Assembly: GCA_030612965.1 (NCBI GenBank)
Contig: JAUWMW010000001.1
Location: 182 to 64,181, forward strand
Direction: 5' to 3'
Origin: a bacterium
GTDB taxonomy: Bacteria > Zixibacteria > MSB-5A5 > GN15 > FEB-12
DNA length: 64,000 nucleotides
Shown here: piece after piece, positions 7,456 to 47,485 of the stretch
Layout of the letters: each line of letters opens with the position of its first letter
How positions within the stretch are numbered: the first letter of the stretch is position 1
Position numbers and translations under genes: made by a program
Notes under the pieces: model-generated
What the model saw: only the letters and a program-made list of their open reading frames with translations
Told to the model about the DNA's origin: nothing
The model's database searches: none

Positions 7456-8556
7456 ATGGCAGATATCACACGCAACCAATTCTTGGCAGGTAAGGGCGTC
7501 CAGAAAAAGATATACCAAAAGGGCATCCTGCTGATGGACGCCGACCTCAATGAGCAGGCCGATGTTGAACTGGAAAGACATCGGCGGGCGTTATCGTGTC
7601 TGCTTAATCGTGAAGATGCGCGATTCGAGAATCCTTTGTGGACTGATGGCAGTGGCTTCAAAATCACCAACCACAATTCAGCGCTCACCGTTTATATTCT
7701 GGCCGGTGATGCAGCGTTTCACCTCGACGAGAATCATGCCGCGCTCGTTACGCATGAAGGACGGACCGAACTGACCGGATTCGCCAGTTGGGTCTCAGGT
7801 GGATTACGCACGGACCTGATTTATATAGATATCGAGGAAAAGGAAATCTCATCGGCCGACGATCCGAACATTGTTAATCCGGCCGTGGCGGCTGAAACCT
7901 GTCGCGATATACGTCTTACTTATGACATCAAAATCGAAGCTGGTGTGTTCCCACCGGCCTATTCCTTACCGAGTGCTCCAGCCGGTCATGTCTATCGAAA
8001 ACTTGCCCTCGTCTCCAAGGATGGCTCCAGCGATCAGATAACGACGGATGATATTGGAATGTTGTTGCCCATTCGTAGTGCCACAACCGCCCTCAATTCG
8101 ATGGAGATTCCGTTCTGGATGGAGGCATCAGTGTCTCATAGTAATTACGATGCTCAAGGTCTGGAAAACAACGACTTTACTTATTTAATAAGTAACGACG
8201 TCGATTCAAAGACGATCATTGTCATCAAAGTGCCGTATGTGTACGATCCGGCTCACAAATATCTTTCTCTGCATTGTCAAGTGAAACGGGCGTCATGGAC
8301 GGACGGTTATGTGCGCCTTGACGGATTTGCTCGGACAGGTACACAGGCGGGGATTCAACTCAGCGGGGCGTCTGAGACGCTGGAGGATGTGGTGAGCTAT
8401 CTGGACATTCCTGCTTCATTGACCGAGGGACAAGTCTATGAGATTCAGGTAGTCCTATCTGCCCAATCCGCAATCGGTTCTTGTTATATCTGGATGTACC
8501 GGCCTGTTCTATCGGCTGGCGTCGGACCGTTCATTCATGAGCTGGGTGGCGTGTGA
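7456..8556 (+). CDS. Hypothetical fibre-module protein
   Basis: 366 aa. The N-terminal QKGILLMDADLNEQ motif recurs in fibre-associated proteins, as far as I recall. Last structural gene before the lysis cassette. Confidence 0.45.
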   Translation: MADITRNQFLAGKGVQKKIYQKGILLMDADLNEQADVELERHRRALSCLLNREDARFENPLWTDGSGFKITNHNSALTVYILAGDAAFHLDENHAALVTHEGRTELTGFASWVSGGLRTDLIYIDIEEKEISSADDPNIVNPAVAAETCRDIRLTYDIKIEAGVFPPAYSLPSAPAGHVYRKLALVSKDGSSDQITTDDIGMLLPIRSATTALNSMEIPFWMEASVSHSNYDAQGLENNDFTYLISNDVDSKTIIVIKVPYVYDPAHKYLSLHCQVKRASWTDGYVRLDGFARTGTQAGIQLSGASETLEDVVSYLDIPASLTEGQVYEIQVVLSAQSAIGSCYIWMYRPVLSAGVGPFIHELGGV

Positions 8557-9065
8557 TGGTCATTGATTGTTTAGTTCCGCCCAAGTTGGCCGCTCTCGGG
8601 GTGAAACGTCAGGGCGATGGTAAGGCCGCGGACCTGTCGACGATTTGGGATACACCTTATCCGGTCTTGACAAATTACCAAAAGCTGATGGGCCGTCTCC
8701 TCTGGCAAGCCTACGCAGGAGGCACTAGGGGAATGCAGGGTCCATCGCATGTCCAGGGGTTCATCACGTCCGGCTACCGGGATGATATCATTGAAGGCCG
8801 GACAAGTTCACCCCACCTTTTTGCGATCGCGCTGGACATTGCCGCCGGTGGTGTGCACGACCAGGTGGGAGCAGCGAGGTTCGCTGTCGAATACTTCAAT
8901 CGGATAGGTCTCTATCCTGAGAACGGGTTCATTCACGTCGACCTGGCCACACCGGCGTGGATGCAACGGTATGGCGGTCGCTTGTTTTGGGTCCGGAAGG
9001 GCGGCAAGTACACGTCGTTCGACGACTTGGGTGAAGCCATCCTCTTTGCAGAAGGGAGATCATAA
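8556..9065 (+). CDS. Endolysin, peptidase M15 (zinc D-Ala-D-Ala / L-Ala-D-Glu peptidase fold)
   Basis: GFITSGYRD...SSPHLFAIALDIA...GFIHVD gives the H-x6-D ... H zinc triad pattern of Peptidase_M15_3. Followed by holin-like membrane genes. Confidence 0.75.
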   Translation: MVIDCLVPPKLAALGVKRQGDGKAADLSTIWDTPYPVLTNYQKLMGRLLWQAYAGGTRGMQGPSHVQGFITSGYRDDIIEGRTSSPHLFAIALDIAAGGVHDQVGAARFAVEYFNRIGLYPENGFIHVDLATPAWMQRYGGRLFWVRKGGKYTSFDDLGEAILFAEGRS

Positions 9066-22158: not shown

Positions 22159-22161
22159 AAT

Positions 22162-32024: not shown

Positions 32025-33645
32025 ATACCTGGAGATGCTGTTTATCATCGCCGAGTTGTGCGCAGCTACCAGGCGATTGATCGCACGTCACAGTATCGTA
32101 TACTTTGCCTGGCATTATCTCGGCGTCTATCTCCCGTGGCATCAGGAGTTTTGGGTCCGGATGCTGTTGCGTTCAAAGCGGATCGTCATCCTGGGACCTC
32201 GAAACCACGGCAAGACAGAAGTGGTCTCAAAGATTCTCCCTCTGTGGCTGATCTGTTGCAATCGGAACATTCGCATTCTGATGGTCACAAAGTCATTGGA
32301 GCTGGCGCGACGTAATTCTATGCTGATTCGTGGCGAGCTGGAGACGAACCAGAAGTTGATCGCCGACTACGGCGCCTTCTATCATCACAAAGAGTCACGC
32401 ATCTGGCAGCAAGCGACTTGGCAAGTTGTTCGATCCAAAGCGATGAAGGACCCGACCTTCACGGCGGTCGGTTTGTTCGGTGCGGTAACCGGTAACCGCT
32501 GTGACGTTCTTATCCTGGACGACGTGATCGATCAGGCTTCGGTGACCACACCCGAACAGATCGCCAAGTGCAAGGCGGAAATCCAGGGCACCTATTTCCC
32601 GCTGTTGGAACCGTCGGGCCAGACGTTCGCTATCGGTACGCGCAAGAACTTTAACGACATCTACGGTTTTCTTCTGAAGGCGCCCGGCTGGCAGGCGATA
32701 GTGCAGCAGGGCGTCCTCCGAATGCCCGCTAAGTGGCATGTTGAAAAGCTGGAGGAACCGTGGATCGATGAGGACGGCTTTGAACGATTTGAGCGCGTGG
32801 TGATCGACGGCGCCGATCGTGGTGTCGTGCTCTGGCCCGAGGTGCGCCCGATCGAGTGGTGCCTGGAGCAAAAGCTGATCATGGGCACGCCCTTATGGGA
32901 GCGTGAGATTCAGAACAACCCGGTCGATGAAGAAACGGCCATGTTCCCTATGAAGAACCTGAAGCAGTGCACGGACGAATCGTTGTCTTATATCGACGGA
33001 CGGATCACGCCGCGCATCCGTCGACAATACCTGGCCATCATTGCCGGATGCGATCCGGCTATCGTCACCACGAAGCAGGATGCCGAGCGCAAGGACTCCG
33101 ACTATATGTGCATGTATGCCATAGGTGTCCGGCGTGATGGCACTCGCGACCTGTTGGCCGTGCATCATGAACGCGGCCTCTCGCCCTCGAAGGTCCAGAA
33201 GGCGATCAAAGCGTTCTGTCGCCGGGTCTCACCGCTCAGGATGGCCGTGGAGTCGAACGCTTTCGGTATCTTGCACATTGATATGATCATAGAGGAAACG
33301 GACCTGCCAATCATTCCACACATCACGGGACTGAACAAGCACGACGCCTACGAAGGTGTTGGCCACATGGGTATGCTGTTTGAAAATCTCAAGTTCCGTC
33401 TGCCCTACCAAACAGATGAGGATAAGCGTCGAACGGACGATCTCATTCAAGAGCTGCACGCTTTCGGTGCGGACATTCACGATGATATGGTTATGGCTCT
33501 TTGGATCACCTGCTTTGCCATCCTGCGGTTCCTGCGAGGCAAGGCCCTGGTCAGAAAGAGAACACGACAAAGGATAGGTAACAATGTCGAAGAAGAACAA
33601 ACTACAGAAGCAACGGTCGGCGAAGAAGCGCCTGTCGAAGGATAG
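31969..33645 (+). CDS. terL: Terminase large subunit
   Basis: Walker A VILGPRNHGKTE and Walker B DVLILDDVID, with a C-terminal RNaseH-like nuclease region. Start is ATG 31969 or 31993. Confidence 0.9.
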   Translation: MTGKDNRTMAKITRPLLTKYLEMLFIIAELCAATRRLIARHSIVYFAWHYLGVYLPWHQEFWVRMLLRSKRIVILGPRNHGKTEVVSKILPLWLICCNRNIRILMVTKSLELARRNSMLIRGELETNQKLIADYGAFYHHKESRIWQQATWQVVRSKAMKDPTFTAVGLFGAVTGNRCDVLILDDVIDQASVTTPEQIAKCKAEIQGTYFPLLEPSGQTFAIGTRKNFNDIYGFLLKAPGWQAIVQQGVLRMPAKWHVEKLEEPWIDEDGFERFERVVIDGADRGVVLWPEVRPIEWCLEQKLIMGTPLWEREIQNNPVDEETAMFPMKNLKQCTDESLSYIDGRITPRIRRQYLAIIAGCDPAIVTTKQDAERKDSDYMCMYAIGVRRDGTRDLLAVHHERGLSPSKVQKAIKAFCRRVSPLRMAVESNAFGILHIDMIIEETDLPIIPHITGLNKHDAYEGVGHMGMLFENLKFRLPYQTDEDKRRTDDLIQELHAFGADIHDDMVMALWITCFAILRFLRGKALVRKRTRQRIGNNVEEEQTTEATVGEEAPVEG

Positions 33646-35233
33646 GATCGTCCAGACGCCGGACGGTGCGATGAGTGTCCACATGGTGTCGGTGGGCAAG
33701 GCGAGTGGTCCGTTGACCACGTCGACGCAGTCTAACATCCTGGACCCGTTCAGGACGGACTATACCGGCAACAGGATATTGGCTCCGCCGTATCCGCTGG
33801 AGACATTGGCGCAGATGTGCGAATACTCGGCGCCGCTGTCGCAGTGTATCGCTGTTTACACGTCGAACATCGTAGGCTTCGGGATCGACCTCGTCCGGGC
33901 ACGCTGGACGGCTGACACTGAGGAAGACAGCGAAAAGAAGTTGCCACCGGAAGCAGACACCGAGTATATGCGTCTCATGCAGTTGTTCAACTACGCCAAC
34001 CGCAAGGAATCGTTTGTGACGCTCATGCGGACGGTGTTCAAGGATCAAGAGAACTGCGGCATGGGTTATGTGGAGGTGGTGCGCAACCGCGCCGGTGAGA
34101 TCGCCACACTTTTGCGACTACCAGCACACACCGTGCGATGGACGCCCAAGGATGCGGAGTGGACTGAGTTCACGCAGCGCGTGCTCGGTGAGGGCGGTGA
34201 ATATGTCGACATCCCACGAACCGACCGCTTTCGGCGCTTCGTTCAACGGGTGAACGGTAAGAAAATGTACTTCAAGGAATGGGGTGATCCGCGTCCGATC
34301 TCAAAGTCAACAGGCAAGCCCCTGGCGGCCAATTCAAGGGCGGACGCTGCTAACGAAGTGATCATCTTCGAGCAAGAGGCGGTCCGCACTACCTATCCGC
34401 TGCCCCGATGGATGCCGAATATGATGGGTATCCTGGGTGCTCACGACGCCGACACGGTCAACTATCTGTTCTTCCAGAACAAGTCGATTCCGCCGCTCAT
34501 TGTTACAGTATCGGGCGGATCGCTCACCGGCGAGACCGTGGACAAGCTCGGAGACTTCTTTGACAAAGAGATCAAAGGCCTGGACAGCTTTGAGCGGGTG
34601 CTCATCCTGGAGGCCGTACCCGCTGAGGTCGGTTCGTTTGAAGGTGAAAAGGTCAGTCCGGTCAAGATCGAAGTGCAACCGCTCACACAGTTTATCAAAG
34701 AGGATGCTCGTTTCCTTCTGTACCGGGAGGCCGTGGCCAAGTCTATCCGCGGTGATTACCGGTTACCTCCCGTATTGCTCGGTATGTCTGAAGACTACAA
34801 TCGTGCTACTGTGATTGAGGCGGTGCGATCCGCTGAAGAACAGGTCTTCCGTCCGGAGCGCACGCCCATTGAATATGTTATCCAGACGACCATCATGGCG
34901 GACATGGAAATCAAGTATTGGGAATTCAATTTCCTCGGGGGTAAAACGTCCGACTACGCTGCCATGCTCGAAGCTATCTCCGGCGTCAAGGAGATGATTC
35001 CTGTCGGGCAGGTTCAGAAGATTGTCCAGATGATGTTGAACGAACCGACTGAGGATATTCCGGAGGCTCTATTCCAGACGCTTCTGTCAGAGCTGCAAGC
35101 GGCGATCAATGAACCTGCTCCCCTCCCGCCTAGTGCCAAAACCACACCGGAGCAACAGGAGGGCTTGGTTGAAAAGCTGGTTGACCTCAGACATCAATTA
35201 GAGAAACGACTGGAAGAAAGGAAGGCCGGATAA
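33584..35233 (+). CDS. Portal protein
   Basis: 549 aa directly after terL. The pattern ILAPPYPLETL...CIAVYTSNIVGFG resembles the PBSX/HK97-type portal family. Confidence 0.8.
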   Translation: MSKKNKLQKQRSAKKRLSKDRIVQTPDGAMSVHMVSVGKASGPLTTSTQSNILDPFRTDYTGNRILAPPYPLETLAQMCEYSAPLSQCIAVYTSNIVGFGIDLVRARWTADTEEDSEKKLPPEADTEYMRLMQLFNYANRKESFVTLMRTVFKDQENCGMGYVEVVRNRAGEIATLLRLPAHTVRWTPKDAEWTEFTQRVLGEGGEYVDIPRTDRFRRFVQRVNGKKMYFKEWGDPRPISKSTGKPLAANSRADAANEVIIFEQEAVRTTYPLPRWMPNMMGILGAHDADTVNYLFFQNKSIPPLIVTVSGGSLTGETVDKLGDFFDKEIKGLDSFERVLILEAVPAEVGSFEGEKVSPVKIEVQPLTQFIKEDARFLLYREAVAKSIRGDYRLPPVLLGMSEDYNRATVIEAVRSAEEQVFRPERTPIEYVIQTTIMADMEIKYWEFNFLGGKTSDYAAMLEAISGVKEMIPVGQVQKIVQMMLNEPTEDIPEALFQTLLSELQAAINEPAPLPPSAKTTPEQQEGLVEKLVDLRHQLEKRLEERKAG

Positions 35234-36621
35234 TGGGGTTCAGTGATTCCATCGGCCAAGTCATACAAGGTGATTGCCTCCAAGTCATGCGAACCATGCC
35301 GGATGAATGCATCGATACGATCATCACCGACCCACCTTATGGTCTGAAGTTCATGGGCAAAGAGTGGGATCATGGCGTTCCGGGTGTACCGTTTTGGTCT
35401 GAAGCATTGCGAGTCGCCAAGCCGGGCACGATGCTTCTGGCGTTCGGAGGCACGAGGACTCACCACCGCCTGATGGTGGCTATCGAAGATGCTGGCTGGG
35501 AGATTCGGGACTGCATGATGTGGCTATATGGATCTGGGTTTCCGAAGTCGCTGGATATTTCAAAGGCTATCGACAAGAAGGCGGGTGCGAAGCGGGAGGT
35601 AATAAAGGAGCATCCTAATCCGGCCACGACCCTCGGCAATAAACAAACGATGGATGGCGGAGAAGCGCAAGACTTTGTTTCGCTGACCGCTCCCTCTACC
35701 GACGCCGCCAAAGAATGGGACGGCTACGGCACTGGTCTCAAGCCCGCATGGGAGCCGATCATCGTTGCTATGAAATCGCTGGACGGCACGTTTGCAGCTA
35801 ACGCCTTAGAACACGGCGTGGCTGGGTTCAACATAGACGGAGGGCGGATAGCGACAGGAGAGTCGTTGGCTGGTGGCGGGCCTGTGCGCCGATCTGCAAT
35901 GGCGGGCGACTCTCGAACGGGTGCAGCATTAGGTCTGTTTGCCCCGGGGAAAGAAAGACAACCATTCCAACAACCTCAAGGCCGTTGGCCCGCGAACCTT
36001 GTGCTATCGCATACGCCGGAGTGCCGGGAAGTCGGGACGAAAAAGGTTAAAGGTTCATCGTCACAGTCCTCAATCGGACAAGGCAGTGGCAAAAAGTCAA
36101 AGGTATATGGACAGGCACCAAGTATTGTGACCACGGCTTATTCGAGTCCTGACGGCACGGAGACCGTCGCCGCTTGGGAGTGCTCAGAAGATTGTCCGGT
36201 GCGGTTGCTGGATGAACAGAGCGGAGAACGTAAGGCGGCCCCTCATGGGCCTAACATCAAAGCCAAGGGTTTGTTTGGCGTGGAGCCGGGACATCGCGGA
36301 TTCTCCGATACTGGCGGCGCGTCTCGCTTCTTCTATTGCGCCAAAGCGTCCTCGTCTGAACGCAATGCCGGTCTGCCCGAAGGTCACAAGAACACACACC
36401 CGACAGTCAAGCCGCTGAAGCTGATGGAGTGTCTCTGTAAGCTAACAGCAACACCGACTGGCGGGATCGTCCTCGACCCTTTCGCTGGTAGTGGTTCAAC
36501 TTTGTTGGCCGCTCAGAATGTTGGGCGACCGTTCATCGGGATAGAATTGGACGAAGAACATTGTGAAACCGCCAGATATCGTTTAGGCGGCACCCTCTTT
36601 TCAAAGGCGGCGACAGCATGA
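35233..36621 (+). CDS. DNA methyltransferase, N6-adenine type (DPPY), beta-class
   Basis: Motif IV is IITDPPYGL. C-terminus reads HPTVKPLKLMECL...VLDPFAGSGST...GIELDEE. Confidence 0.9.
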   Translation: MGFSDSIGQVIQGDCLQVMRTMPDECIDTIITDPPYGLKFMGKEWDHGVPGVPFWSEALRVAKPGTMLLAFGGTRTHHRLMVAIEDAGWEIRDCMMWLYGSGFPKSLDISKAIDKKAGAKREVIKEHPNPATTLGNKQTMDGGEAQDFVSLTAPSTDAAKEWDGYGTGLKPAWEPIIVAMKSLDGTFAANALEHGVAGFNIDGGRIATGESLAGGGPVRRSAMAGDSRTGAALGLFAPGKERQPFQQPQGRWPANLVLSHTPECREVGTKKVKGSSSQSSIGQGSGKKSKVYGQAPSIVTTAYSSPDGTETVAAWECSEDCPVRLLDEQSGERKAAPHGPNIKAKGLFGVEPGHRGFSDTGGASRFFYCAKASSSERNAGLPEGHKNTHPTVKPLKLMECLCKLTATPTGGIVLDPFAGSGSTLLAAQNVGRPFIGIELDEEHCETARYRLGGTLFSKAATA

Positions 36622-36642
36622 CAACCGGACAGGAGTTATAAT

Positions 36643-37185
36643 ATGGCGACAGCGGCTTTTACCGCGTACAAGTGCACCGGCGCCAACGCGGCCACCGAGA
36701 CCGACAGCGTCAAGAATCCATGCTTCTTGAATAGCGATGAGCACAGTACAGATACCGGCGCCCACAGGGTAGGTGTGCCCGACGCGGCATCCAGCCCCAA
36801 CCAAAGCTATGAGGTCTATCTGCGGCTGAAGTGCATCACGGCCCCAAACAACGACTGTGACAACTTCAAATACTGGGGACCATCAGAGCAGCCGGACTAT
36901 ATGGACACGCCGGGTAACAAACTGACTATCATGGTTGCCACGACGGCCACGGGAGCAACACCGACCGACAACGTCTCCACTGTGGCCACCACCGTTCAGC
37001 ACACGAATTACAACGGGCCTGACCCGGGCAGCCATTTGGCTATTGGTGTCGTCCCAGGTGACGACGTTATCGATGCTGTTGGTGAGTACACCGATTATAT
37101 CGTGTGTCAGTTGAAGGTCGAGGACGAGGCGCAGCGCGGCGAGATGGCCACGTTGCCTTTTTACATCGAGTATGATGAGGCTTAG
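36643..37185 (+). CDS. Hypothetical protein
   Basis: 180-aa ORF with GGAG upstream. Confidence 0.55.
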   Translation: MATAAFTAYKCTGANAATETDSVKNPCFLNSDEHSTDTGAHRVGVPDAASSPNQSYEVYLRLKCITAPNNDCDNFKYWGPSEQPDYMDTPGNKLTIMVATTATGATPTDNVSTVATTVQHTNYNGPDPGSHLAIGVVPGDDVIDAVGEYTDYIVCQLKVEDEAQRGEMATLPFYIEYDEA

Positions 37186-37188
37186 AAC

Positions 37189-37536
37189 ATGACCGATTCG
37201 TGGGCCAAGATATACCAGTACGAACTGACCTTTGCCGATGGGCGGGTTGTTCGGCAGGCGGATGAGGATATCAAGATGGTGGACTTCGTCCGCAAGTACG
37301 GTCGCATGGTCAAGATAACTCTCGTGCCACAACAATCTGAGCTGGCGGAGCACTATGCTCTCATCCCGGAAGGAATGGATCCCGTCTACCGACGCCGCAT
37401 CCTATTGAAAAACGGCACGCAACTTGAACGCCTCCGCTTTGTCATTGGATGGTCTACCGGCAAGGCTCGCAATCTCATTGCTGTCGATGCCGCTACCGGT
37501 GCGGTTGAATTGTTATTGCCGGAGGCTGGCAAATAG
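37189..37536 (+). CDS. Hypothetical protein
   Basis: 115-aa ORF. Confidence 0.55.
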   Translation: MTDSWAKIYQYELTFADGRVVRQADEDIKMVDFVRKYGRMVKITLVPQQSELAEHYALIPEGMDPVYRRRILLKNGTQLERLRFVIGWSTGKARNLIAVDAATGAVELLLPEAGK

Positions 37537-37597
37537 ATGGCAACGATCACTCGCAGACCTACGGGTAACACCTTACTGATGGAGCCGGAAAACTACA

Positions 37598-38080
37598 ATG
37601 GACAGTAAGATCATGGTGGAAGAGCGAGAGTATAAAGACTTAGTCGAATATAGACCCCAGCAAGAGGGGAATATCATATTAGAGAAAGTTCTGCACAAGG
37701 GCGGTGATCTCTTTCAGTTTACAAGAGCAGAGAGAATCAGGATCAAGGACGATACGTATTTTTGGGAGCTTGTGGAAATGATTGACGGGGAGAGGTCTGC
37801 GGTAATGAACGATCATCCGGTGATGCGGGAAAGCTACCGTAAGGCGTTTGACGATTTCAGCGGGGACATTCTGGTCGGCGGGCTGGGGATCGGTCTGATG
37901 TTTTCCTACATTAAGGAGTTCTCCTGTATTGACGTAGTAGAAAAGGACGCTCGAATAATCAAGATCGTCGGACCTTACTTCGCCGGACTGAAGGGGGTCA
38001 ACATAATCGAGGGTGATATTATGACGATCGACGAACGGTTCACGCCCCACGCTGACATTGTTAGGCACTGGGAGTATTGA
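37598..38080 (+). CDS. Small class-I SAM-methyltransferase-fold protein (spermidine-synthase-like, apparently truncated)
   Basis: ILVGGLGIGLM is a motif I-like GxGxG, and IDVVEKD carries the motif II acidic residue. Only 160 aa. Its stop overlaps the start of the 2120-aa gene. Confidence 0.45.
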   Translation: MDSKIMVEEREYKDLVEYRPQQEGNIILEKVLHKGGDLFQFTRAERIRIKDDTYFWELVEMIDGERSAVMNDHPVMRESYRKAFDDFSGDILVGGLGIGLMFSYIKEFSCIDVVEKDARIIKIVGPYFAGLKGVNIIEGDIMTIDERFTPHADIVRHWEY

Positions 38081-41000
38081 TGGCTACCGCTATATTAAGA
38101 CCGGACGGGGATGGTTATTTAACAGAGTGGCTAAATCCATCTGGGGGCAACCATTATCTTCAAGTCGATGAAGCATCTCCTGATGATGCAGTTACAGTTA
38201 TAGCTCATCCGGCTGTTGCCAATGTTACTCCGTTTTTAAGATTAAGCAGCACGAATGGACTGGGAACATTAACAGCATTAGTTAATAATACCTGGACAAC
38301 ACATAGTGAAGTGATAGCAAAGCCTGGCGGAGGTTCTTGGACCTATACTGATTTGGCATCACTTGAGGTGGGGATCATCGGTGATGCGACTGTCGATGTG
38401 TATGACAGTTTCACGCTAAGCGCCTGGGGCGAGGGTGATGTAACAATCAATTCGGTTACCGTTTATTTCAGGGGGATGAAAACACTCGGTAAGCTTGCCG
38501 AAGGTTATATTACACAGATTTATGTTCAGGTGGATTATTCGGCGGCGGCCACCGATGAAGCTCCGACCTCCCTGGAATGTGATCGGCAAACGAACCCGAC
38601 CGGCGTTGGCGACACGCCCATTTTCACCGCACTCTACCAAGCAGAGGGCGACAGCGGCACCGCAGACCGGTACAAAATCGAGGTGGATGACAACAGTGAC
38701 TTCGCCTCGCCCAAGTGGCAGAGCGGGGAGCAGACTTTGTCACCGACCTGCACAGATGGGCAGCGTTGCACCGAGATTGCCTATGGTGGCACTTCCTTAC
38801 AGTCGGACGTGACCTACTATTGGCGGATCCAGCTTTATCAAAGCGGTCGCACCCCCACCTGGTCGACCGGGACCAACACGTTCGCGGGCGTCAATCGGGA
38901 TTGGGAAGACGCGGAATATCCCGTTCGGCGTAAGTTGACCGTGAACGCAGACCATGACGGGATAGCATCGGGAGAATTGTTGTCCTTTGATTTCGAGACC
39001 GGCAAGCGAATCATTCTGGCGTCTGACGGTTGTTTTGACGAAGCTATTCAGGCGAGCGGCGGATTCTCTATCGCTCGCCATGCCGGGCGCACACATATCG
39101 CATATCTTTCCAAGCTGGAATCTGTGGATGCGAAACTGGGCATTCGGATCGTGACGCTCAATGCGATCACCGGAGAGCAGGGAACATCCCATTATATCGA
39201 CACTTCCGGGAGCACGTATGACACCCACTTCTTTCCAACCTTAGATGTGACGCCGGATGGATACCTGCATTGCTTCTACGGTGCGCATGGTGGCTCTTAC
39301 AGATATCGACGCAGCAAATATCCCAATGAGAGCGGATCGCTCTCGACCGACCATACCGACGCCGCGATGTGGGTTCGTGCCGACACCGGGGCGGACGCCT
39401 ATATGACGATTAGTGGTTTCACCGGAACCTATGCTATCCCGTTCCACATTGCCAGCGGCAATGATGCGGGACGTCTTTATTGTTTCTGTCGGTCAGGGAC
39501 GTCGTACAGATACATCTTCGTGTATTCGGACAATTCTGGCGTGAGCTGGAGTGCCGTGCACACCATGATTGATGATACCAGCGCAAGCCACTATCGAGTT
39601 TATATGTACGGCGTGCGGTTCGACCGCAAAGAACAGCGATTGCATATTTCGTGGACTCACAACCACGCCGGTGATGTCGAGAAAGGTATTTGGTACGCCT
39701 ACTGCGACTATGACGAAACCGATGGCTCAAGTCTTGACGTCGGCTTGAACATCTGGCGTTGGGCCGATGGTACTCTTGCCGGTCGCACAAAGACAACGGG
39801 CGCGCAGGCGCCGATAGATTATACTCTCGCGGAGGCTATCACCACCTCGGCCAGCGAGTTATCAAAGGTCTTTACCGAGACGCTTGTGATCGACAAGAAC
39901 GGTGATCCGGTTGTGTTCTGGGAACAGAAGTTCAATCAGGGAACGAATCTGTGGGCGCACCAGACGAACCTGATGTGTGCGCGGTGGTCGGGATCCGCTT
40001 GGGTCATCTACTGCATCAGCGACCAGGTCAATACCAAGTTGCGGGTGCGCAGGTCGAGCGTTGCCATTGGACTGGATAAGGACGGGGTGATCCATGCTAT
40101 TATGCCGGTGGCTTCAAAAACACAATGGCGACAACTGGCTACTGGTGATGATGATGATGTTGGTGTCACGCTCGCGAGCGGCACGGACAACTATGCCATG
40201 ATTGACGATGGCTTCAGTCGGATCGATCAGGCGACCTGGCTCAAGATGTCGGCGGTGGGTAGCAAGGCCAGCTTCACGCACGGCACCAGTAACGCGGATG
40301 ATATCAATAAGATATTCAGCGTCGAGGTTGTTGCCTTCGCTAAGTCGACCGGCAGCGCGTCGAGCATAAAGCTCTACCTTGACGACGGCACATCATCTGA
40401 CCTTGCAACAGCTCAGACGATTTCGACTTCGGCGATAACCCGATACACGAAAGAATGGACAACGAACCCCTTCACGGCTGCGGCTTGGGCCTCTGGTGAT
40501 ATTGCCGGATTGCGGTTCGGCGTACAGTGCGAAAGCACCAACGAAGTGCAGATTTGGAGCGTCTTTATGCGCTTCACGTTCATGCGTTCGACTGATGAGA
40601 ATCTGGGTGCGGCCGAACTGCACGAATTGACATCCAGCGATAACGGAGTTACCTGGCAGATACAGGAGCGCAGCCGTAATAGCATGATCGGGGTGCCGAT
40701 GATGAACCATCCTCATCATCTTACCGGCGATGTTTTTCAAGCGATCTGGACCTCCGGGCACGACGTTTTCTACTACAGCAACGAACGCTTCGGTCTGATG
40801 TTGCCGACCGGTCTTGACGTTCGCATTCTGCATGGGGCGACGGAGATCGATAGGGTTGCAACATATTGGAATCTCAATAAGTCTCGGATATCTTTCAAAG
40901 CACAAGAGGCTATCACCGCAGGCAAAATAGCCGGCGCCTCCGACTATTACCTGGAATATGGCAATCGCAACGCTGATAACGATGTGCAGGGTGCACCTGC

Positions 41001-44000
41001 GGATGTCTGGCAGGGTTTCTGGAACTTCGAGGAAATGGCAGAGGGGGATAGTATTGGGACTCATGCCGACTGGACGCTCGTATCGGGCACGGCTTCCGTC
41101 TATTCATCATTGACCAATCATCGCAACAAAGTTTATGCTGGCAATCATGCTATAAAATCCCTCACGCATGCATTCGAGGCTTACACGATCATTGGCGTCA
41201 ACGTAGCTGATGTCTTCATCGAGGCCGGTATCTGGTTGCAAGCGTCCCTGAACTACAGCTATATCGCGGCGCGGGACGGCACAACGGAGTTTAGGGTTGG
41301 CGTCAATCAAGGAACGAACCGCCCGGCTTATTACGATGGATCCTGGCACGATGTGACGACGGCGGGCTATGCCGACCGGGCCAATATGAACAACTTCGCT
41401 ATTCTTGTAACGTCAAAAGGTTGTTCTGCCTGGGTGAATGGCACAAGGATATGCGAAGAAGTCTCTTGTATTACAGTTGTCGATCAGATCAGGATCGGCA
41501 GCGCCGGCGAATCCTACTTTGACCTGATCCGGTGGAGCAAGCGACCATATGCCACTGAGGATTATACCACCACGACGGGATTCGATAAGGCGATGGGTGT
41601 TTACAGCAGTAATCATACGGCAACGAAAGAAACAGCGGACTCTTATCATAATATCCCTTCAACGCCCTGGCAAAAGTCTCGGATCACGCGGGTCGATGTT
41701 ACTGTCGACGTGCGGAACACGCAGACTTTTGAAAACGATTTTACGATCGATACCCATTGCTGGATCGGTGGCACCTCGCCCTATGACAGCAGCGATACCG
41801 TAGACGATGGGACTCATGTGCACACCGGAATCAATTCCGGGAGCGCATGGCAGGGTTCTCATACCTATTCCTTTACCGATTTGGATCTTGGTCCGAAGTC
41901 AGTCAAGGTTGATTGCTATGCCTGCTCGGTAACAGACGAACCAACCAAGACGGACGTTCGGATAACGCAGATCAAGATATGGACGGAAGACCGTGATCCG
42001 ATCATCGTCATAGGAGACGAGGAGTGGCGCGGGTTCCGTATGGATGCTACGCTGCAAGGCTCCGGCCAGATTCAGTTTTTCATGGATGCCAACATCAACG
42101 CGGCCTACAGGCGCAACCCCTTACCGGTACGGATGGCACATACCGGAGGGGTGGAGATGCGTCACGCTACTATGATTGAAAGCCTCGCACAGATTACGCC
42201 GAATGGCCGAGTGGTGATAGAAGCGGGTCGGCTCTTGGACACACACGCTCAGTGTATACTTGAGGGTCTTCGCGGTCTGGTCGACCGTGTGGTTGCTCCC
42301 CTTGAGTACGCAGGTCAACCTGCCGCCATCATGCAGACGGCCATCGGCCATGTGGCAGGCCTGTCTACGGTAGGACAGGTCTGTCTCGACTACGGAGGAT
42401 TGATCAATACGAATGTGCTCACGGCCCTGGAATACAACACATCGATCGACGCCGACGGTCAGTTCATTATCGACTACGCCGGACAAGCGGCGGTGCAAGG
42501 TGCTGTGGTCATTGAATCGTTGCATCGGATAGATACCGAGCTGGCCGTCCCGGCCGAGTTCCTTAGTAGCATGATTACCCACGGGCAGGGTCTTGTCGAG
42601 TTCGGTAAAGGGTTGGCCGGGCAGCAACAAGTCTGCCTGGCTTATGTCGGCTCGTTCTCTGCCGCTGGCGTTTTTGTCATTGATCACCTGGCCATGCTGA
42701 AGTTGCGCCGTCTTGCAAACATAGAACACGGGCTAAGAACGCAAGTCAGGGGATTGGTGCCTTTCGGTCATGGTCAGGGTTTAGATGGTCGTGCTATCTT
42801 GCCGATCGCTTTCCTGGGATCGGCTCAGATGGTCTCGCAGGCACTCGTTGAATGGTCCAAGATTGCACAGCCGATGACGCCGCAGATTGTTTTTGATAGC
42901 GGCAGAGCCATCGCATCTCATGGTCAGCTCGCCATTGAGAACCTGGGTGCGTTACTCACCGACGTGATCACACCGGTCGAATGGCAGGGTGGCGTAGCTG
43001 TGAGCGCCGAAGGCCTTTTCCCTGTCGAATGGGGTGGTGGCGTCTCTATCACCGCCCCAGCCATGATTGAGTCACGCGGTGGATTCTCAGACGACATTGT
43101 TTTACGCCTGGAGTTCGTTGGTGCTTTCAAGACGGATCAGAAACTCGTGTGGTCGAACCTGGCGCTGCTCGAAGCTCCACAAGCGGCGCTGATCGAAGCC
43201 GGTGAGGGTGTTGCCGTTAAGGCATCGACGTTGTTAGAGTGGGGCCGGGGCTTACAGTCTCAGGGTAAAGCAGCGATAAATTGGATGACTGCCATGCAGA
43301 TCGTGCAGCAGCTCATCGCCGGGTGGTCTGCATGGACGACAACACAGGCCAGGGCGGGCATTGAATGGACGGGCACGATGGTCCCGCTGGAACTGCGGAC
43401 CGCCTTTGAGTACGGCGAGGGAGGCACGATGCAGCTTCAAACGCCTACCGAATGGCTCACAGGACGCAAGACGGTCCAACAGACGGTTATTGAATTCACC
43501 GGCGGCCAGGTTGTGACCGTGCCTGGGGCGTTCCCGATCGAGTGGACACTCAAAGTTGACACGTCCGGCGTGGTTCATTTTGACTACGGACAACGATCCT
43601 TGATCAATGCCATCACTCCGATCGACATCATGTCCGGACTATCTACTTCTGGTAAGATACCTATCGCCGTCGACCAGCTCGCCAAGGTGATCCACCAAGT
43701 CAGTATTGAATACCTTGCTCGCCTGGAACGGATCGGTCAGGTCAATTTTGATTACGGACGTCTCGCTCAGGGTGAGATTCAAGCATCCTTGGAGTATGGT
43801 GTAAAGTTGCTCACCGATGGCATCATGCCGATGGAATGGCTTGGCGCTACGGTCATGACTACCTTTGGCCAGCTCCCTATAAGTTGGCGCTCATCTCTGG
43901 TTGCAAATCAGCGGGCCGGCATCGAATACGTGAAAGGCTTGGAGATCATACACGGCCAGGTTCTTATCGACTGGGGAGCGTCGACCTCTGCTATCGTAGG

Positions 44001-44442
44001 CCAAGTCTCGATAGAGTGGGGCCAAGGTACGCGGGTCATTGCGCAATATCTGGCTGATTGGCTCGGCACCGTCGGCGCCTACGGACGCATCTCTTTTGAA
44101 AACCGTGGCTACATGACACCGATGATCATGGTCGCGGACATCGAATGGGGTAAAGGTCTTACGACGCGCACACAGATACCGATCGAGTATGGCTTTAGCC
44201 TGGTGGCCAGCGGTCAGCTTCCGATCGATTGGCTCGGCTTCGCCATCACTATGTTCACGGTTGCGTGGGCCGAGGCACGCATCCCCGGTATCGTCGGTGC
44301 GGCCGCACAGTTACCCGGCGTGCGTGAAGCGATGGCTAAACTATCCGAGGCGGAAAGCGCAACGGCCCGGACGGCCGCCGCCGCCAACGCCCTCGCAAAG
44401 ATCATTGACGCTATGGACTCTGAAAACTTAGGAGGTGTATAA
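38080..44442 (+). CDS. Giant (2120-aa) multidomain virion-associated carbohydrate-binding/adhesin-like protein
   Basis: Asp-box motifs SDNSGVSW (39526-39549) and SSDNGVTW (40633-40656). GH78-N/FN3-like module (...YGGTSLQSDVTYYWR). LamG-like region. About 49 x 14-aa repeats. Ala-rich C-terminal helix. Confidence 0.8.
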   Translation: MATAILRPDGDGYLTEWLNPSGGNHYLQVDEASPDDAVTVIAHPAVANVTPFLRLSSTNGLGTLTALVNNTWTTHSEVIAKPGGGSWTYTDLASLEVGIIGDATVDVYDSFTLSAWGEGDVTINSVTVYFRGMKTLGKLAEGYITQIYVQVDYSAAATDEAPTSLECDRQTNPTGVGDTPIFTALYQAEGDSGTADRYKIEVDDNSDFASPKWQSGEQTLSPTCTDGQRCTEIAYGGTSLQSDVTYYWRIQLYQSGRTPTWSTGTNTFAGVNRDWEDAEYPVRRKLTVNADHDGIASGELLSFDFETGKRIILASDGCFDEAIQASGGFSIARHAGRTHIAYLSKLESVDAKLGIRIVTLNAITGEQGTSHYIDTSGSTYDTHFFPTLDVTPDGYLHCFYGAHGGSYRYRRSKYPNESGSLSTDHTDAAMWVRADTGADAYMTISGFTGTYAIPFHIASGNDAGRLYCFCRSGTSYRYIFVYSDNSGVSWSAVHTMIDDTSASHYRVYMYGVRFDRKEQRLHISWTHNHAGDVEKGIWYAYCDYDETDGSSLDVGLNIWRWADGTLAGRTKTTGAQAPIDYTLAEAITTSASELSKVFTETLVIDKNGDPVVFWEQKFNQGTNLWAHQTNLMCARWSGSAWVIYCISDQVNTKLRVRRSSVAIGLDKDGVIHAIMPVASKTQWRQLATGDDDDVGVTLASGTDNYAMIDDGFSRIDQATWLKMSAVGSKASFTHGTSNADDINKIFSVEVVAFAKSTGSASSIKLYLDDGTSSDLATAQTISTSAITRYTKEWTTNPFTAAAWASGDIAGLRFGVQCESTNEVQIWSVFMRFTFMRSTDENLGAAELHELTSSDNGVTWQIQERSRNSMIGVPMMNHPHHLTGDVFQAIWTSGHDVFYYSNERFGLMLPTGLDVRILHGATEIDRVATYWNLNKSRISFKAQEAITAGKIAGASDYYLEYGNRNADNDVQGAPADVWQGFWNFEEMAEGDSIGTHADWTLVSGTASVYSSLTNHRNKVYAGNHAIKSLTHAFEAYTIIGVNVADVFIEAGIWLQASLNYSYIAARDGTTEFRVGVNQGTNRPAYYDGSWHDVTTAGYADRANMNNFAILVTSKGCSAWVNGTRICEEVSCITVVDQIRIGSAGESYFDLIRWSKRPYATEDYTTTTGFDKAMGVYSSNHTATKETADSYHNIPSTPWQKSRITRVDVTVDVRNTQTFENDFTIDTHCWIGGTSPYDSSDTVDDGTHVHTGINSGSAWQGSHTYSFTDLDLGPKSVKVDCYACSVTDEPTKTDVRITQIKIWTEDRDPIIVIGDEEWRGFRMDATLQGSGQIQFFMDANINAAYRRNPLPVRMAHTGGVEMRHATMIESLAQITPNGRVVIEAGRLLDTHAQCILEGLRGLVDRVVAPLEYAGQPAAIMQTAIGHVAGLSTVGQVCLDYGGLINTNVLTALEYNTSIDADGQFIIDYAGQAAVQGAVVIESLHRIDTELAVPAEFLSSMITHGQGLVEFGKGLAGQQQVCLAYVGSFSAAGVFVIDHLAMLKLRRLANIEHGLRTQVRGLVPFGHGQGLDGRAILPIAFLGSAQMVSQALVEWSKIAQPMTPQIVFDSGRAIASHGQLAIENLGALLTDVITPVEWQGGVAVSAEGLFPVEWGGGVSITAPAMIESRGGFSDDIVLRLEFVGAFKTDQKLVWSNLALLEAPQAALIEAGEGVAVKASTLLEWGRGLQSQGKAAINWMTAMQIVQQLIAGWSAWTTTQARAGIEWTGTMVPLELRTAFEYGEGGTMQLQTPTEWLTGRKTVQQTVIEFTGGQVVTVPGAFPIEWTLKVDTSGVVHFDYGQRSLINAITPIDIMSGLSTSGKIPIAVDQLAKVIHQVSIEYLARLERIGQVNFDYGRLAQGEIQASLEYGVKLLTDGIMPMEWLGATVMTTFGQLPISWRSSLVANQRAGIEYVKGLEIIHGQVLIDWGASTSAIVGQVSIEWGQGTRVIAQYLADWLGTVGAYGRISFENRGYMTPMIMVADIEWGKGLTTRTQIPIEYGFSLVASGQLPIDWLGFAITMFTVAWAEARIPGIVGAAAQLPGVREAMAKLSEAESATARTAAAANALAKIIDAMDSENLGGV
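42172..44256 (+). repeat. ~49 consecutive degenerate 14-residue repeats, consensus [LIV]-[ED]-[WYF]-x-G-x8-[hydrophobic]
   Basis: Example run: IEWGQGTRVIAQY / LADWLGTVGAYGRIS / FENRGYMTPMIMVAD / IEWGKGLTTRTQIP / IEYGFSLVASGQLP / IDWLGF... Spans 695 aa, an average unit of 14.2 aa. Confidence 0.85.
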
Positions 44443-44838
44443 ATGCCGATTCCGATTGAAGTCTCAGGCGACGTACCCCAGGGCAATTCCTGCCTACTAC
44501 ACTTTGAGATCAAAGACTATGATGGCACGACGGCCGTGAGTGTGGCCAACATTGTTACGGCGACCATGACTCTCTACAACCACGACACCGGGCTGGTCAT
44601 TAACGCTCGCGAGGACGTTGACGTTAAGTCCTCGATCGACACCAACGGCATCTTCAGTCATCTCTTGACGGGCGACGACAACCAGATTATCGCAGTCGGT
44701 GAAAGGATGCCGCATGAAAAGCATGTCGCCGTCGTGACGTTCACCGCGACAGGACCGACGGAGAATATCGAATTCAAAAGAGAATTTTGGATTAAAGTGA
44801 TCAACCAACAACACGTCACGAATTACGTGGCACCGTAA
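44443..44838 (+). CDS. Hypothetical protein (beta-sandwich-like)
   Basis: 131 aa. Starts at the nucleotide immediately after the giant gene's stop codon. Confidence 0.6.
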   Translation: MPIPIEVSGDVPQGNSCLLHFEIKDYDGTTAVSVANIVTATMTLYNHDTGLVINAREDVDVKSSIDTNGIFSHLLTGDDNQIIAVGERMPHEKHVAVVTFTATGPTENIEFKREFWIKVINQQHVTNYVAP

Positions 44839-44850
44839 AGGAGGACAACC

Positions 44851-45876
44851 ATGTCCGTAGAACCTTGGGATATCTGGTTTCTCGGCTCAGCCGCGATGCT
44901 GGAGGACGATGTGACCGCAACCGGTAACGGCGGTGCGGCCGCTAAAGGCACAAAGATGACATTCGCTTCGCTGGACCTCGGCTCTGCCGTCACTATCAAG
45001 GCTGTGTCAGAAGACGCTGGCGACACCGTTCCCGTGGTCAAAGTATGGGGCCGTGACGCTGCGGGTGTCAAAGAGGATACCGGCAGCGAACTGGACTTGA
45101 ACGGTCAAACAGCAGTCACCTCAACGCAAGTCCTCGAACGTATCATGAAGGTGACCCTGGAGAGTGGCACGCCAACGGGCGCCATTGCGATCTATCCGAC
45201 AGGGGCTGCAATCGCATCCGGTACGGCTCAAGCCGGAGCGGCCAACGAGATCACCTTGGCTGCCGCTGATTCGGCCGGTGACAACGACTACCAGTTCCAT
45301 GTTCTGATCCTGGACGGTGGAACCGGGGAGTATCAGATTCGTGAGATATTGTCCAATGACGCCACGACCAAAAAGGTCAAGGTGCGTGATTGGGAGACAA
45401 CTCCGGATGGCACGACTACATACTCGATCTATAACGGCGTTGTCCTGGAACCTGCCGACCAGGGGCCGGGGGCAACGAAGATCGACAAGGTCGTCCGTGC
45501 ACACTTTGATGCGTCGGCCAATCCGCTCGGTGGGGCCGACAAGACGTATTACGAAAAGCTGTTCGTCTATAACGATCATGCGACGCTGGCCTTGACGAAT
45601 GCCAAGATCGATGAAGTCGATGAAGGCGCATACGCTGACGTGACATTTGCCCTGGCTGATACTCTTGACGACAGCGGGACTAACGGATCGAACACCCGTC
45701 TTGTTGCACCGTCGTCCGGCGTCGGTTCGTTTGACTCGGACGAAAAGGACGTGCAGAACGGCGGCGCCTTGTCACCCGGCACCGGCCAGGGTGTATGGCT
45801 CGCAACGTTGCTTGAGGACGGTGATCCGGCCGCCGATACGTTCTACAAGTTGCAGGTCACAGGTCAGAGCGTGTAA
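44851..45876 (+). CDS. Hypothetical protein
   Basis: 341 aa, Gly/Ala/Thr/Asp-rich, with AAGGAGGA upstream. Confidence 0.6.
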   Translation: MSVEPWDIWFLGSAAMLEDDVTATGNGGAAAKGTKMTFASLDLGSAVTIKAVSEDAGDTVPVVKVWGRDAAGVKEDTGSELDLNGQTAVTSTQVLERIMKVTLESGTPTGAIAIYPTGAAIASGTAQAGAANEITLAAADSAGDNDYQFHVLILDGGTGEYQIREILSNDATTKKVKVRDWETTPDGTTTYSIYNGVVLEPADQGPGATKIDKVVRAHFDASANPLGGADKTYYEKLFVYNDHATLALTNAKIDEVDEGAYADVTFALADTLDDSGTNGSNTRLVAPSSGVGSFDSDEKDVQNGGALSPGTGQGVWLATLLEDGDPAADTFYKLQVTGQSV

Positions 45877-45959
45877 GGCGTTAAAGAAGAAAGGAGGTAG
45901 CCAATGCTGTGATGTCTTGTGATGTGTAGTTTTGTAATGTCTAACGAAGGAATGAATCA

Positions 45960-46364
45960 ATGTCTGAGAAAACAGAAACAAAAGAGAAGGCCGCCGAGCA
46001 AGTGCTGGTCGACATGTTTGAAACAATCAAGCATGGTGTGATTCTCACTCTATCAGGGATGATCGACAATGATCGACGTGTCGAGGCTTTGCAGCGTTTG
46101 ATTGAATGGGAAATCTGGTCACACTTTGAGAACGATCAGGGTAGTCTTGTGGGCGCAGCGAAAGCGGATGACCCGAATACTGCCATCCGCCGTTTGTTGA
46201 CCGATTTCTATTCTCGCACCCAAGGATTGATGTTGACTATCGTTGACGCCAGCATTGATCCGGCGCGGGTTGAGGCTGCTAAACAAGTCGCAACGCGCCA
46301 GGTGTGGCGAGATCAGCGATGGGTATTGCCTCGCGCCGTTGAACGCATGGCGGACGCAGCTTGA
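45960..46364 (+). CDS. Hypothetical protein
   Basis: 134-aa helical-looking ORF. Confidence 0.55.
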   Translation: MSEKTETKEKAAEQVLVDMFETIKHGVILTLSGMIDNDRRVEALQRLIEWEIWSHFENDQGSLVGAAKADDPNTAIRRLLTDFYSRTQGLMLTIVDASIDPARVEAAKQVATRQVWRDQRWVLPRAVERMADAA

Positions 46365-46375
46365 TAAAGGAATGA

Positions 46376-47485
46376 ATGCCAATACCGTCACCCAACAAAG
46401 ATGAAAAGAAAGGCGCTTTCGTAAGTCGCTGCATTTCATCTATCGTCGAGGAGTACGGCCAGGACAAGGCTGCGGCTATCTGCTATACACAGTGGAAAAA
46501 CCGCAACAAAAAGAAGGTCGACAAATCGGGTGCTGTCGAAACTGCCGGTCATGGGTTGTCCATCAATCCTGATGTGATGACCCACGACCAGGCGGTTGTT
46601 GCTAAGGTCGTGCTTGATAATCTTATCGGTATGGTATGCGGGCTCGCAAAGGCCGAAGGTGAAGCCGTCCCCGGTGAATCCGTCCTCCGTTCGATGTTCT
46701 ATGTTGAATGGGGTGTCGGCGAGGAAAAAGCTATCACCGCCGCCTTGGCGAAACTGGAGGCCGGGTCAGGCAAATTCACGAAGAGGGAGCTGGCAGCGAT
46801 CAGTCAGCTTATTGATAAGACGCTGCAAGGTGAATTTGTGGACCCGGTCGCGGGTAAAATGCCATCGATCTTGACCCGGTGGTACAAGAAGGCCAAGAAG
46901 TCGGTTGCATCGACGCATGGCCTCGAGGTTCTATGGGATAGCATCGACGATAAAGCGACTGAATGGCTATATGACCATCACATGTATTGGGTCAAGGGTT
47001 ACTATAACAAGCATCTGTCGAACGCTCTCTCGGCGCACGTCGCGGACGCCATGAAAGAAGGTCTTGGGCGCCAGGCTATCGGTGAAGAACTCAAAGGGTT
47101 CTTTGACGGCTATCCCGGCGTGCGAAATCAACCCCTGCACTATTGGCGAGGCTTCGCCGCCAACGGCATGAACCGAACCAGGCAGTTCGGTAAGCTCCAG
47201 TCCTGGCAGGATGTCGGGATCACTGAGCTTGAAGTCGTGGCTGTGATGGATGAACGCACCTCTGCGATCTGCAAACGCATGAATGGCGAGATCATTCCGC
47301 TGGATATGGGAATCGCACAGCGTGACCTCTTAATGGGCGCCGAGGACCCGGAGGATGTGAAGACCATCGCACCGTGGCCGAAGGTGGAAGATATTGAGAG
47401 CAAGAAGATCAAGGCGATTATGGAGCAGGGAGTCATAGCGCCGCCGTATCACTTTAACTGTCGAACCGACCTGGTTGAACGATAA
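46376..47485 (+). CDS. Minor head protein, Mu gpF / SPP1 gp7 family
   Basis: VAVMDERTSAICKRMNGEIIPL ... PPYHFNCRTDLV matches the Phage_Mu_F signature (DeRtc..C...G ... PP.H.nCRc). Confidence 0.8.
   Translation: MPIPSPNKDEKKGAFVSRCISSIVEEYGQDKAAAICYTQWKNRNKKKVDKSGAVETAGHGLSINPDVMTHDQAVVAKVVLDNLIGMVCGLAKAEGEAVPGESVLRSMFYVEWGVGEEKAITAALAKLEAGSGKFTKRELAAISQLIDKTLQGEFVDPVAGKMPSILTRWYKKAKKSVASTHGLEVLWDSIDDKATEWLYDHHMYWVKGYYNKHLSNALSAHVADAMKEGLGRQAIGEELKGFFDGYPGVRNQPLHYWRGFAANGMNRTRQFGKLQSWQDVGITELEVVAVMDERTSAICKRMNGEIIPLDMGIAQRDLLMGAEDPEDVKTIAPWPKVEDIESKKIKAIMEQGVIAPPYHFNCRTDLVER

Follow-up and report, generated by a model that had tools for sequence, protein, structure and literature searches.

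The window analysed here is the whole 64,000-nucleotide (nt) stretch of contig JAUWMW010000001.1 (assembly GCA_030612965.1) part of which is given above. It is essentially the whole genome of an uncultured myovirus-type phage, and every gene lies on the + strand. The portal gene and the gene for the MuF/SPP1 gp7-type minor head protein are separated in it by 11.1 kb holding eight genes (35233-46364), one of which encodes a protein of 2120 amino acids (aa), here called the giant. This gap is best explained, with a probability of about 60%, as an old five-gene cassette for a virion-borne polysaccharide-lyase fibre (g180, g115, the giant, g131 and g341) to which three young single-gene events were added (MT462, g160 and g134).

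This explanation is carried by gene content, synteny, the junctions of insertions and deletions, base composition, the fold of the giant and the conservation of its catalytic residues; from these we infer that the giant is incorporated into the virion and, judging by its sequence, would act as a lyase. The gene calls agree with an earlier note on this stretch, made from the letters alone, which had counted eight genes between portal and MuF. The MuF/gp7-like gene named there was also recovered, with a Pfam match above the gathering cutoff (33.1 against 29.6 bits), and is followed by the protease and major capsid genes.

Position and age of the cassette

Relatives were gathered through portal homologues and the contigs that carry them, through homologues of the giant, and by scans of IMG/VR with profiles of the portal and of g341; the loci are cited by L numbers. 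A scan of IMG/VR with the single portal protein found no relative, and relatives were then obtained with a portal alignment as the query. In a megablast search of the 30-50 kb region of the window against 50,697 deposited phage genomes no DNA-level match was found.

In 33 of the 37 IMG/VR loci with both matches, the MuF match begins no more than ~1.1 kb after the end of the portal match. The adjacency of the two genes that the earlier note had taken as usual therefore holds for this family, and the 11.1-kb gap of the window is accordingly a derived state, an insertion. The wider family and the window share the gene order TerL, portal, MuF, protease, major capsid. In L005-7 (portal 47% identical to that of the window) and in L010/L017 (42.5%), portal and MuF enclose the complete cassette (g180, g115, giant, g131, g341). 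The contigs of L009 (giant 86% identical) and L098/99 are incomplete upstream, and in both cases the cassette runs straight into MuF; in L001 (portal 93% identical) g180 follows directly after the portal and the contig then ends.

Measured against L005 and L010, the cassette proteins are 57-60% (g180), 49-52% (g341), 48-57% (g131) and 33-35% (giant) identical and the core proteins 45-49% (TerL), 42-47% (portal), 45-54% (MuF) and 44.5% (major capsid protein, MCP); by these alignments the cassette has diverged about as much as the core genes. In a neighbour-joining (NJ) tree of TerL and portal the group formed by the window, L001, L002, L003 and L004 is sister to L005 and L010, each with 100% bootstrap support. 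The cassette is present on both sub-branches and was therefore already at this site in the common ancestor of the clade.

Three members inside the clade with 58-64% portal identity (L002, L003 and L004) have unrelated large proteins after the portal. These slot contents are secondary replacements and show the slot to be recombinationally active. The post-portal proteins (1366 aa, 221 aa and more than 538 aa; L002:10598-10954, L003:11623-17995, L004:11581-13185) have signal-peptide-like hydrophobic N-termini and no Pfam match, and the 1366-aa protein bears the Asp-box motifs SNDGVTW and SNNRGLTW. A divergent 1774-aa BNR_4 giant with other companion genes occupies the same slot in L008, which belongs to the sister group of the clade; in the other members of that group (L045, L046 and L048) the portal and MuF genes are neighbours. 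The MuF protein of L008 (17473-19227) has 879 aa, compared with 326-369 aa elsewhere.

The giant protein

From its N-terminus the giant consists of a β-sandwich (the swapped part described below), an Ig/FN3-like domain (Ig_Rha78A_N, 29.9 bits), a BNR_4 propeller, β-sandwich/jelly-roll domains, a region of 14-residue repeats and an alanine-rich C-terminal helix. Its start is the ATG at 38080 rather than the TTG at 38077; a database protein of identical sequence (P0069) has 2120 aa. The N-terminal 1200 residues are all-β and multidomain in a model calculated with AlphaFold2 (AF2), with a predicted local distance difference test score (pLDDT) of 68.7. An apparent kinship of the N-terminal domain to the giant's own residues ~700-830 was dropped, the E value being only ~0.4-0.7.

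BNR_4 (PF15892) was matched over residues 371-648 with 64.9 bits against a gathering score of 27.3, and the same match is present in the giant homologues and in the giant of L008. The propeller region has pLDDT values of mostly 75-90. Its top Foldseek matches (5mum, 5mvh, 4irt and 7esk) are GH145/PL42 and sialidase-like structures with template-modelling (TM) scores of 0.61-0.63 by target and identities of ~14-17%. The propeller is modelled as seven-bladed and of the PL24/PL25/PL42 type, PL denoting polysaccharide lyase families. A weak phmmer alignment (E = 0.004) to the PL25 ulvan lyase 5uam places H383, H403, Y451 and R471 on chain positions 99, 119, 164 and 180, and a single offset of 24 turned these positions into His123, His143, Tyr188 and Arg204. 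In PL25 these are the acid (His123), its neighbouring histidine (His143), the base (Tyr188) and the neutralizer (Arg204), and they correspond to His85, His105, Tyr150 and Arg166 of the PL42 enzyme FoRham1 (PMC8377490). The alignment stops short of the fifth conserved residue, Tyr246 (Tyr202 in FoRham1). All four residues of the giant are invariant in alignments of 11 and of 13 members, in which the members from the tail-end position (see below) and L008 are included. Because of this invariance across the family, the giant would be expected to be an active uronate-specific polysaccharide lyase.

A jelly-roll, confidently modelled by AF2, spans residues ~1160-1305 and weakly resembles λ gpJ and carbohydrate-binding modules (CBMs). 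Residues ~1370-2065 are built from ~50 repeats of the form G-x6-G-x-h-P-[IV]-E-[WY], a count taken from the period-14 autocorrelation since a short hidden Markov model of the repeat recovered only 8 units. The repeat region had no match in Pfam or the PDB. When residues 1141-2121 were modelled by AF2 as a monomer only the jelly-roll was folded, and the repeats remained at a pLDDT of ~27. Most giant homologues keep the 14-residue period; P0078 and P0079 have 23-residue repeats in place of the 14-residue ones, and in their N-terminal halves, too, these two resemble the rest of the family less.

In BFVD the N-terminal model matched large 'structural proteins' of cyanophages, LamG-jellyroll proteins and tail fibres. 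The giant had no tblastn match in the 50,697 deposited phage genomes, and a narrow literature search on ulvan lyase in phage tails, which gave nothing but an unrelated review, found no example of a PL24/25/42 (BNR_4) propeller in a phage. Contigs bearing giants were binned mostly with Ignavibacteria (L011, L014 and L015), the other metagenome-assembled genome (MAG) bins being Rhodothermales (L017), Spirochaetota (L013) and Dehalococcoidia (L016). Two of the Ignavibacteria-binned contigs are 105-130 kb in length (L011 and L014); these could be integrated prophages, which would reveal the host.

Small cassette genes

With only a g115-type gene between them, g180 lies upstream of the giant in L005, L009, L010, L011, L012, L014, L015, L040 and L041; its family has 113 representatives. 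Homologues of g115 stand at the same position in L005, L009, L010 and L041, and open reading frames (ORFs) of the same size do so in L012, L014 and L040. The position of g131 is likewise kept in L005, L009, L010, L011, L012, L015, L040, L041 and L098, and the gene might possibly encode a fibre chaperone. For g341, 211 relatives were found in IMG/VR (L098-L177 among the loci), usually just downstream of an ORF of 400-2100 aa. The g341 family is far wider than that of the giant, the large upstream ORF often being no giant homologue, and many of its matches span only a conserved central segment (core ~residues 119-209).

Searches with g180, g115, g131, g341 and g134 against Pfam, PHROGs and NCBIfam gave nothing credible; the profiles of g341 and g180 had no match among PDB sequences, and tblastn with the same two proteins found none in the deposited phages. 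No paralogues of the cassette genes were found among the other genes of the window. Constant linkage at both genomic positions is what suggests that the small genes work with the giant.

Second cassette position at the end of the tail cluster

The cassette is remote from the portal in L011, L012, L014, L015, L040 and L041, the last of which is without a g341 homologue. In L015 the order assigned with PHROGs is baseplate wedge, a 1348-aa protein, tail fibre (phrog_892), tail protein (phrog_48), a homologue of window gene 7456-8556, the cassette and an endolysin (phrog_315). The baseplate wedge of L015 is 38% identical to the product of window gene 2694-4229, and the product of the gene upstream of its cassette is 34% identical to that of 7456-8556. 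The homologue of 7456-8556 stands directly upstream of g180 in L015, L040 and L011, and L041 has the same upstream homologues. In the window this 366-aa gene is directly followed by an endolysin-like gene and a holin, so that the tail-end cassette site is 'empty' there.

Both sites can be inspected in one 66.6-kb contig (IMGVR_UViG_3300028883_000048), in which the cassette follows the tail genes (L040/L109) and 173 nt separate the portal match from the MuF match (L071). TerL (40%), portal (32%), MuF (41%), g206, protease and MCP are contiguous in L071, and in the NJ tree this phage branches outside the clade of the window and its sister group. The simplest history that can be read from these sequences would be one in which the tail-end cassette was moved or acquired once into the portal-MuF junction, in the ancestor of the clade.

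Recent lineage-specific changes

L001 lacks MT462, and its portal stop codon and g180 start codon overlap (TAATG). The same junction is interrupted in the window by 1.4 kb with MT462, the inserted DNA being ~35237-36642. The DPPY DNA methyltransferase that the earlier note had seen here is borne out by the N6_N4_Mtase match (PF01555, 98.7 bits) and the visible motif ITDPPYG; its closest phage homologues are ~42-49% identical. For g160 the methyltransferase fold proposed in that note is reduced to a resemblance, made up of a weak match to phrog_15480 (E = 6.5e-5) and a GxGxG-type motif.

g160 is missing from L009 and from every other locus examined. Between flanks that are both 86-89% identical to L009, nucleotide similarity is absent over 37565-38511, and the giant is ~33% identical to that of L009 over residues 1-100 and 83-100% identical from about residue 200 on. 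Directly after the g115 stop, 28 nt (ATGGCAACGATCACTCGCAGACCTACGG, 37537-37564) correspond to the first nine codons (MATITRRPT) of an L009-type giant; they align with the start of the L009 giant, and the similarity breaks at ~37565. This relic is now a dead start upstream of g160. The break and the relic start together indicate a recombination that imported g160 and the 5' end of a divergent member of the giant family. Between g341 and MuF the window has ~0.5 kb more than L009, in which the g341 stop abuts the MuF start, and this extra DNA holds g134. MT462, g160 and g134 are thus each missing from an 86-93% identical relative. The lineage-specific DNA amounts to ~2.9 kb in three separate events, about a quarter of the block, and the three genes, g160 together with the N-terminal domain of the giant, are recent, separate single-gene events.

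Taken as a whole, the block does not stand out in composition (GC 0.544, compared with 0.542 in the rest of the window). Its sole deviating part is the patch 37565-38511, and the window has 11 low-GC patches in all. The A/T-rich stretch reported earlier near 37.6-38.4 kb is real: GC is 0.480 in g160 and 0.453 in the first ~145 codons of the giant, for which the GC content at third codon positions (GC3) of 0.36 is the minimum of the window (z = -3.5 against 69 window genes). The GC3 values of MT462, g160 and g134 are all within 1.1 standard deviations. The A/T-rich patch coincides with the recombined stretch and is truly foreign DNA.

Other indels and low-GC patches were noted. L001 encodes ParB only (175 aa), 666 nt (window 30646-31311) being missing with respect to the ParB-methyltransferase fusion of the window (30190-31365); the methyltransferase half may have been either lost or gained relative to L001. 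Counting MT462, the window and L001 differ by two methyltransferase indels at a portal identity of 93%. A third N6/N4 methyltransferase is encoded at 19453-20637. The strongest low-GC patches in the window, in 400-nt windows, are 6151-6950 (minimum 0.407) and 21551-22350 (0.420). The former takes in the gene that follows the one for an 840-aa tail protein, together with the 3' end of the latter, and this points to a further receptor-binding region that was exchanged.

Proposed function and history

The cassette would serve as a module for host-surface recognition and depolymerization. Its propeller would cleave a uronic-acid-containing capsule or exopolysaccharide by β-elimination, with H383 acting as base/acid, H403 as a helper, Y451 as a further catalytic residue and R471 as the neutralizer of the carboxylate. 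Ig-like and jelly-roll domains of carbohydrate-binding type would flank the propeller, followed by a shaft of ~50 14-residue repeats, and the four small genes that travel with the giant presumably attach or assemble it. As a movable unit, the cassette would have been placed between portal and MuF in the clade ancestor and inherited there since. MT462 would have entered precisely at the junction of portal stop and g180 start, where it presumably shields the phage DNA from restriction; recombination would have brought in g160 and a foreign N-terminal domain of the giant, leaving the old start codon as a relic, and g134 would have been inserted between g341 and MuF.

Alternative explanations

The earlier note had taken the block for a single acquired island of ~11 kb. 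That the whole of it was recently acquired as accessory cargo with no relation to virion function is very unlikely, and a single recent island is largely refuted by composition and by the five-gene core shared with relatives. Such cargo would fit the adjacency of portal and MuF in most relatives, the A/T-rich patch, a methyltransferase of the kind typical of moron cargo and the differing slot contents of L002, L003 and L004. Against this, the GC content of the block is that of the backbone, the five core genes stand at the same site down to 42% portal identity with core-like divergence, no flanking repeats were found at the block boundaries, Pfam and PHROG scans of the eight genes gave no integrase, transposase or HNH match, and only the ~2.9 kb of the three events is lineage-specific. 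Of the idea of acquired cargo there remain the splitting of a normally adjacent pair and the foreign patch; five of the genes are old, and this core looks structural, of fibre or depolymerase type. The comparisons which that note had proposed thus divide the block: in synteny, five of the eight genes co-occur in relatives and MT462, g160 and g134 do not, and in GC and GC3 the patch deviates and the whole block does not. Relatives with the same genes at the same place and with host-like composition, named in the note as speaking against an island, were largely found for the five-gene core.

It is unlikely that the giant is head-associated, whether as a fibre on the capsid or on the portal vertex or as a protein inside the head that is packaged and ejected along with MuF. 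The gene is, however, co-oriented and tightly packed in the head operon between two portal-associated genes, its placement is stable across a clade with ~45% core-protein identity, and L008 independently has a BNR_4 giant in the slot, beside its enlarged MuF. Terminator signals in the operon are also no higher than chance; the counts of the promoter and terminator scan equalled the shuffled expectation, with a sigma-70 model that may not fit this host. What speaks against a head location is that the same cassette follows tail-fibre genes in at least seven other contigs, one of them with adjacent portal and MuF, that a lyase propeller, Ig-like and CBM-like jelly-roll domains and long repeats are typical of external adhesins and fibres, and that a 2120-aa all-β multidomain protein is an improbable passenger through the tail channel. 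It is quite unlikely that the giant is a lyase carried by the capsid or by the portal vertex, or co-packaged with MuF, with its 14-residue repeats forming an undescribed anchoring fibre or solenoid fold; if true, this would be a head-borne depolymerase system of a catalytic class for which the searches run here found no phage example. Similarly improbable is an enzyme outside the virion, released at lysis or acting on the envelope or matrix of the infected cell, for example in the degradation of biofilm or extracellular polysaccharide for the spread of progeny. The conserved lyase-type catalytic residues, the signal-peptide-like N-termini of the same-slot proteins of L002, L003 and L004 and the failure to find a virion-anchor domain would suit such an enzyme. 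The giant itself has no predicted signal peptide, though, and its ~1400 non-catalytic residues, of which ~700 are periodic, are kept as an architecture that is hard to justify in a soluble enzyme; it is also tied to four small genes and lies inside the tail-gene cluster in the phages with the tail-end position (group B).

A virion-borne lyase fibre is preferred over these alternatives, and several observations weigh against it. The giant of the window is encoded in the head operon and not within the tail/baseplate-fibre cluster. The swap has affected its N-terminal part, but in classical fibres it is the C-terminus that varies. The catalytic residues were mapped through the weak alignment with E = 0.004, and the repeats were not folded by AF2, so that the term 'shaft' is an assumption. 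Outside the propeller and the Ig-like domain, no domain for tail attachment, trimerization or chaperone function was found with Pfam, PHROGs or the PDB, and g180, g115, g131 and g341 have no recognisable homologues of known function. The direction of the move, from the tail end to the portal-MuF junction, is deduced from an NJ tree of two genes with one outgroup contig. The slot between tail and lysis genes is a common place for non-structural morons too, and the signal-peptide-like proteins in the same slot of L002, L003 and L004 fit secreted rather than virion proteins.

Layout of the window

The features are listed in Table 1. The 206-aa gene after MuF (g206) is kept there whether or not a relative has the cassette (L010, L046, L048, L071 and L098) and is therefore part of the head module and not of the insertion.

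Table 1. Positions in the window of the cassette, its flanks and other features, with the evidence for each.
Feature	Position	Strand	Evidence or remark
Baseplate and fibre genes, then lysis genes	1-9.6 kb	+	
'Empty' alternative cassette site	7456..9065	+	366-aa tail-cluster gene 7456-8556, then endolysin-like gene
Replication/recombination genes	~11.8-29 kb	+	
ParB-methyltransferase	30190-31365	+	
TerL	31969-33645	+	
Portal, left flank of block	33584..35233	+	Pfam Phage_portal 50.5 bits; phrog_12
MT462, N6/N4 DNA methyltransferase	35233..36621	+	Pfam N6_N4_Mtase 98.7 bits; DPPY motif
g180, 180 aa, first cassette gene	36643..37185	+	Synteny
g115, 115 aa, second cassette gene	37189..37536	+	Synteny
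Relic of former 5' end of giant	37537..37564	+	Alignment to L009 giant start
A/T-rich replacement patch: g160 and foreign N-terminal domain of giant	37565..38511	+	No nucleotide similarity to L009
g160, 160 aa, small S-adenosylmethionine (SAM)-methyltransferase-like, lineage-specific	37598..38080	+	phrog_15480 E = 6.5e-5; GxGxG motif
Giant, 2120 aa	38080..44442	+	Pfam BNR_4 64.9 bits; Ig_Rha78A_N 29.9 bits; AF2; Foldseek; homologues P0069-P0079
BNR_4 propeller core, Pfam residues 371-648	39187..40020	+	Pfam PF15892; PL25 alignment
Candidate catalytic codons	H383 39226-39228; H403 39286-39288; Y451 39430-39432; R471 39490-39492	+	
~50 tandem 14-residue repeats	42184..44271	+	Period-14 autocorrelation; motif listing
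g131, cassette gene directly 3' of giant	44443..44838	+	Synteny
g341, last cassette gene	44851..45876	+	Synteny; 211 IMG/VR relatives
g134, 134 aa, lineage-specific	45960..46364	+	Inserted DNA ~45877-46375
MuF/SPP1 gp7-type minor head gene, right flank	46376..47485	+	Pfam Phage_Mu_F (PF04233) 33.1 bits; phrog_115
g206, 206 aa, between MuF and protease	47594-48214	+	
Protease, major capsid protein, adaptor, sheath, tape measure, baseplate hub	downstream of MuF	+	

Comparison with known systems

β-Propellers are an established fold of phage depolymerases and make up ~12% of those recognised (PMC11326577). Like tail-fibre and tailspike depolymerases of this kind, the giant is a large multidomain protein of structural type with a propeller that is modelled as glycan-cleaving; it likewise adjoins tail-fibre genes in several relatives and shows modular domain exchange between close relatives. 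It differs from them in the PL24/25/42 (BNR_4) type of its propeller, its length of ~2100 aa and a C-terminal third of repeats belonging to no known family, and the giant of the window differs further in that the exchanged part is N-terminal and the gene lies between portal and MuF. With the PL25 enzyme PLSV_3936 (5UAM/5UAS), the PL24 enzyme LOR_107 and the PL42 enzyme FoRham1 (7ESK) it shares BNR_4 and the propeller fold (TM ~0.62), and their His/His/Tyr/Arg set was aligned, weakly (E = 0.004), to its invariant residues. Those enzymes are stand-alone bacterial or fungal proteins of ~400-500 aa, to which the giant is only ~14-17% identical.

MT462, g160 and g134 resemble phage morons and orphan methyltransferases as clean single-gene insertions at gene boundaries; unlike these, the g160 event also exchanged a portion of a structural gene, and a relic start codon remained. 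In SPP1- and Mu-type head modules portal and MuF/gp7 are adjacent; the clade of the window keeps the order but splits the pair by 11.1 kb.

Implications

The giant belongs to a family found in metagenomes only, which pairs a lyase propeller of the PL24/25/42 type with an uncharacterised repeat of 14 residues. The giant is a candidate for a new class of depolymerase, the hosts of which appear, from MAG binning only, to include Ignavibacteria- and Rhodothermales-like bacteria. Domain swapping at the start of a structural gene is documented with unusual clarity by the relic start codon. Both cassette sites are preserved in related genomes, one phage having the tail-end site filled and an intact portal-MuF junction and the window having the reverse. 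A tail-fibre-type cassette can thus, if the preferred explanation is correct, live stably in a head-morphogenesis operon, and gene position alone can mislead the annotation of phages.

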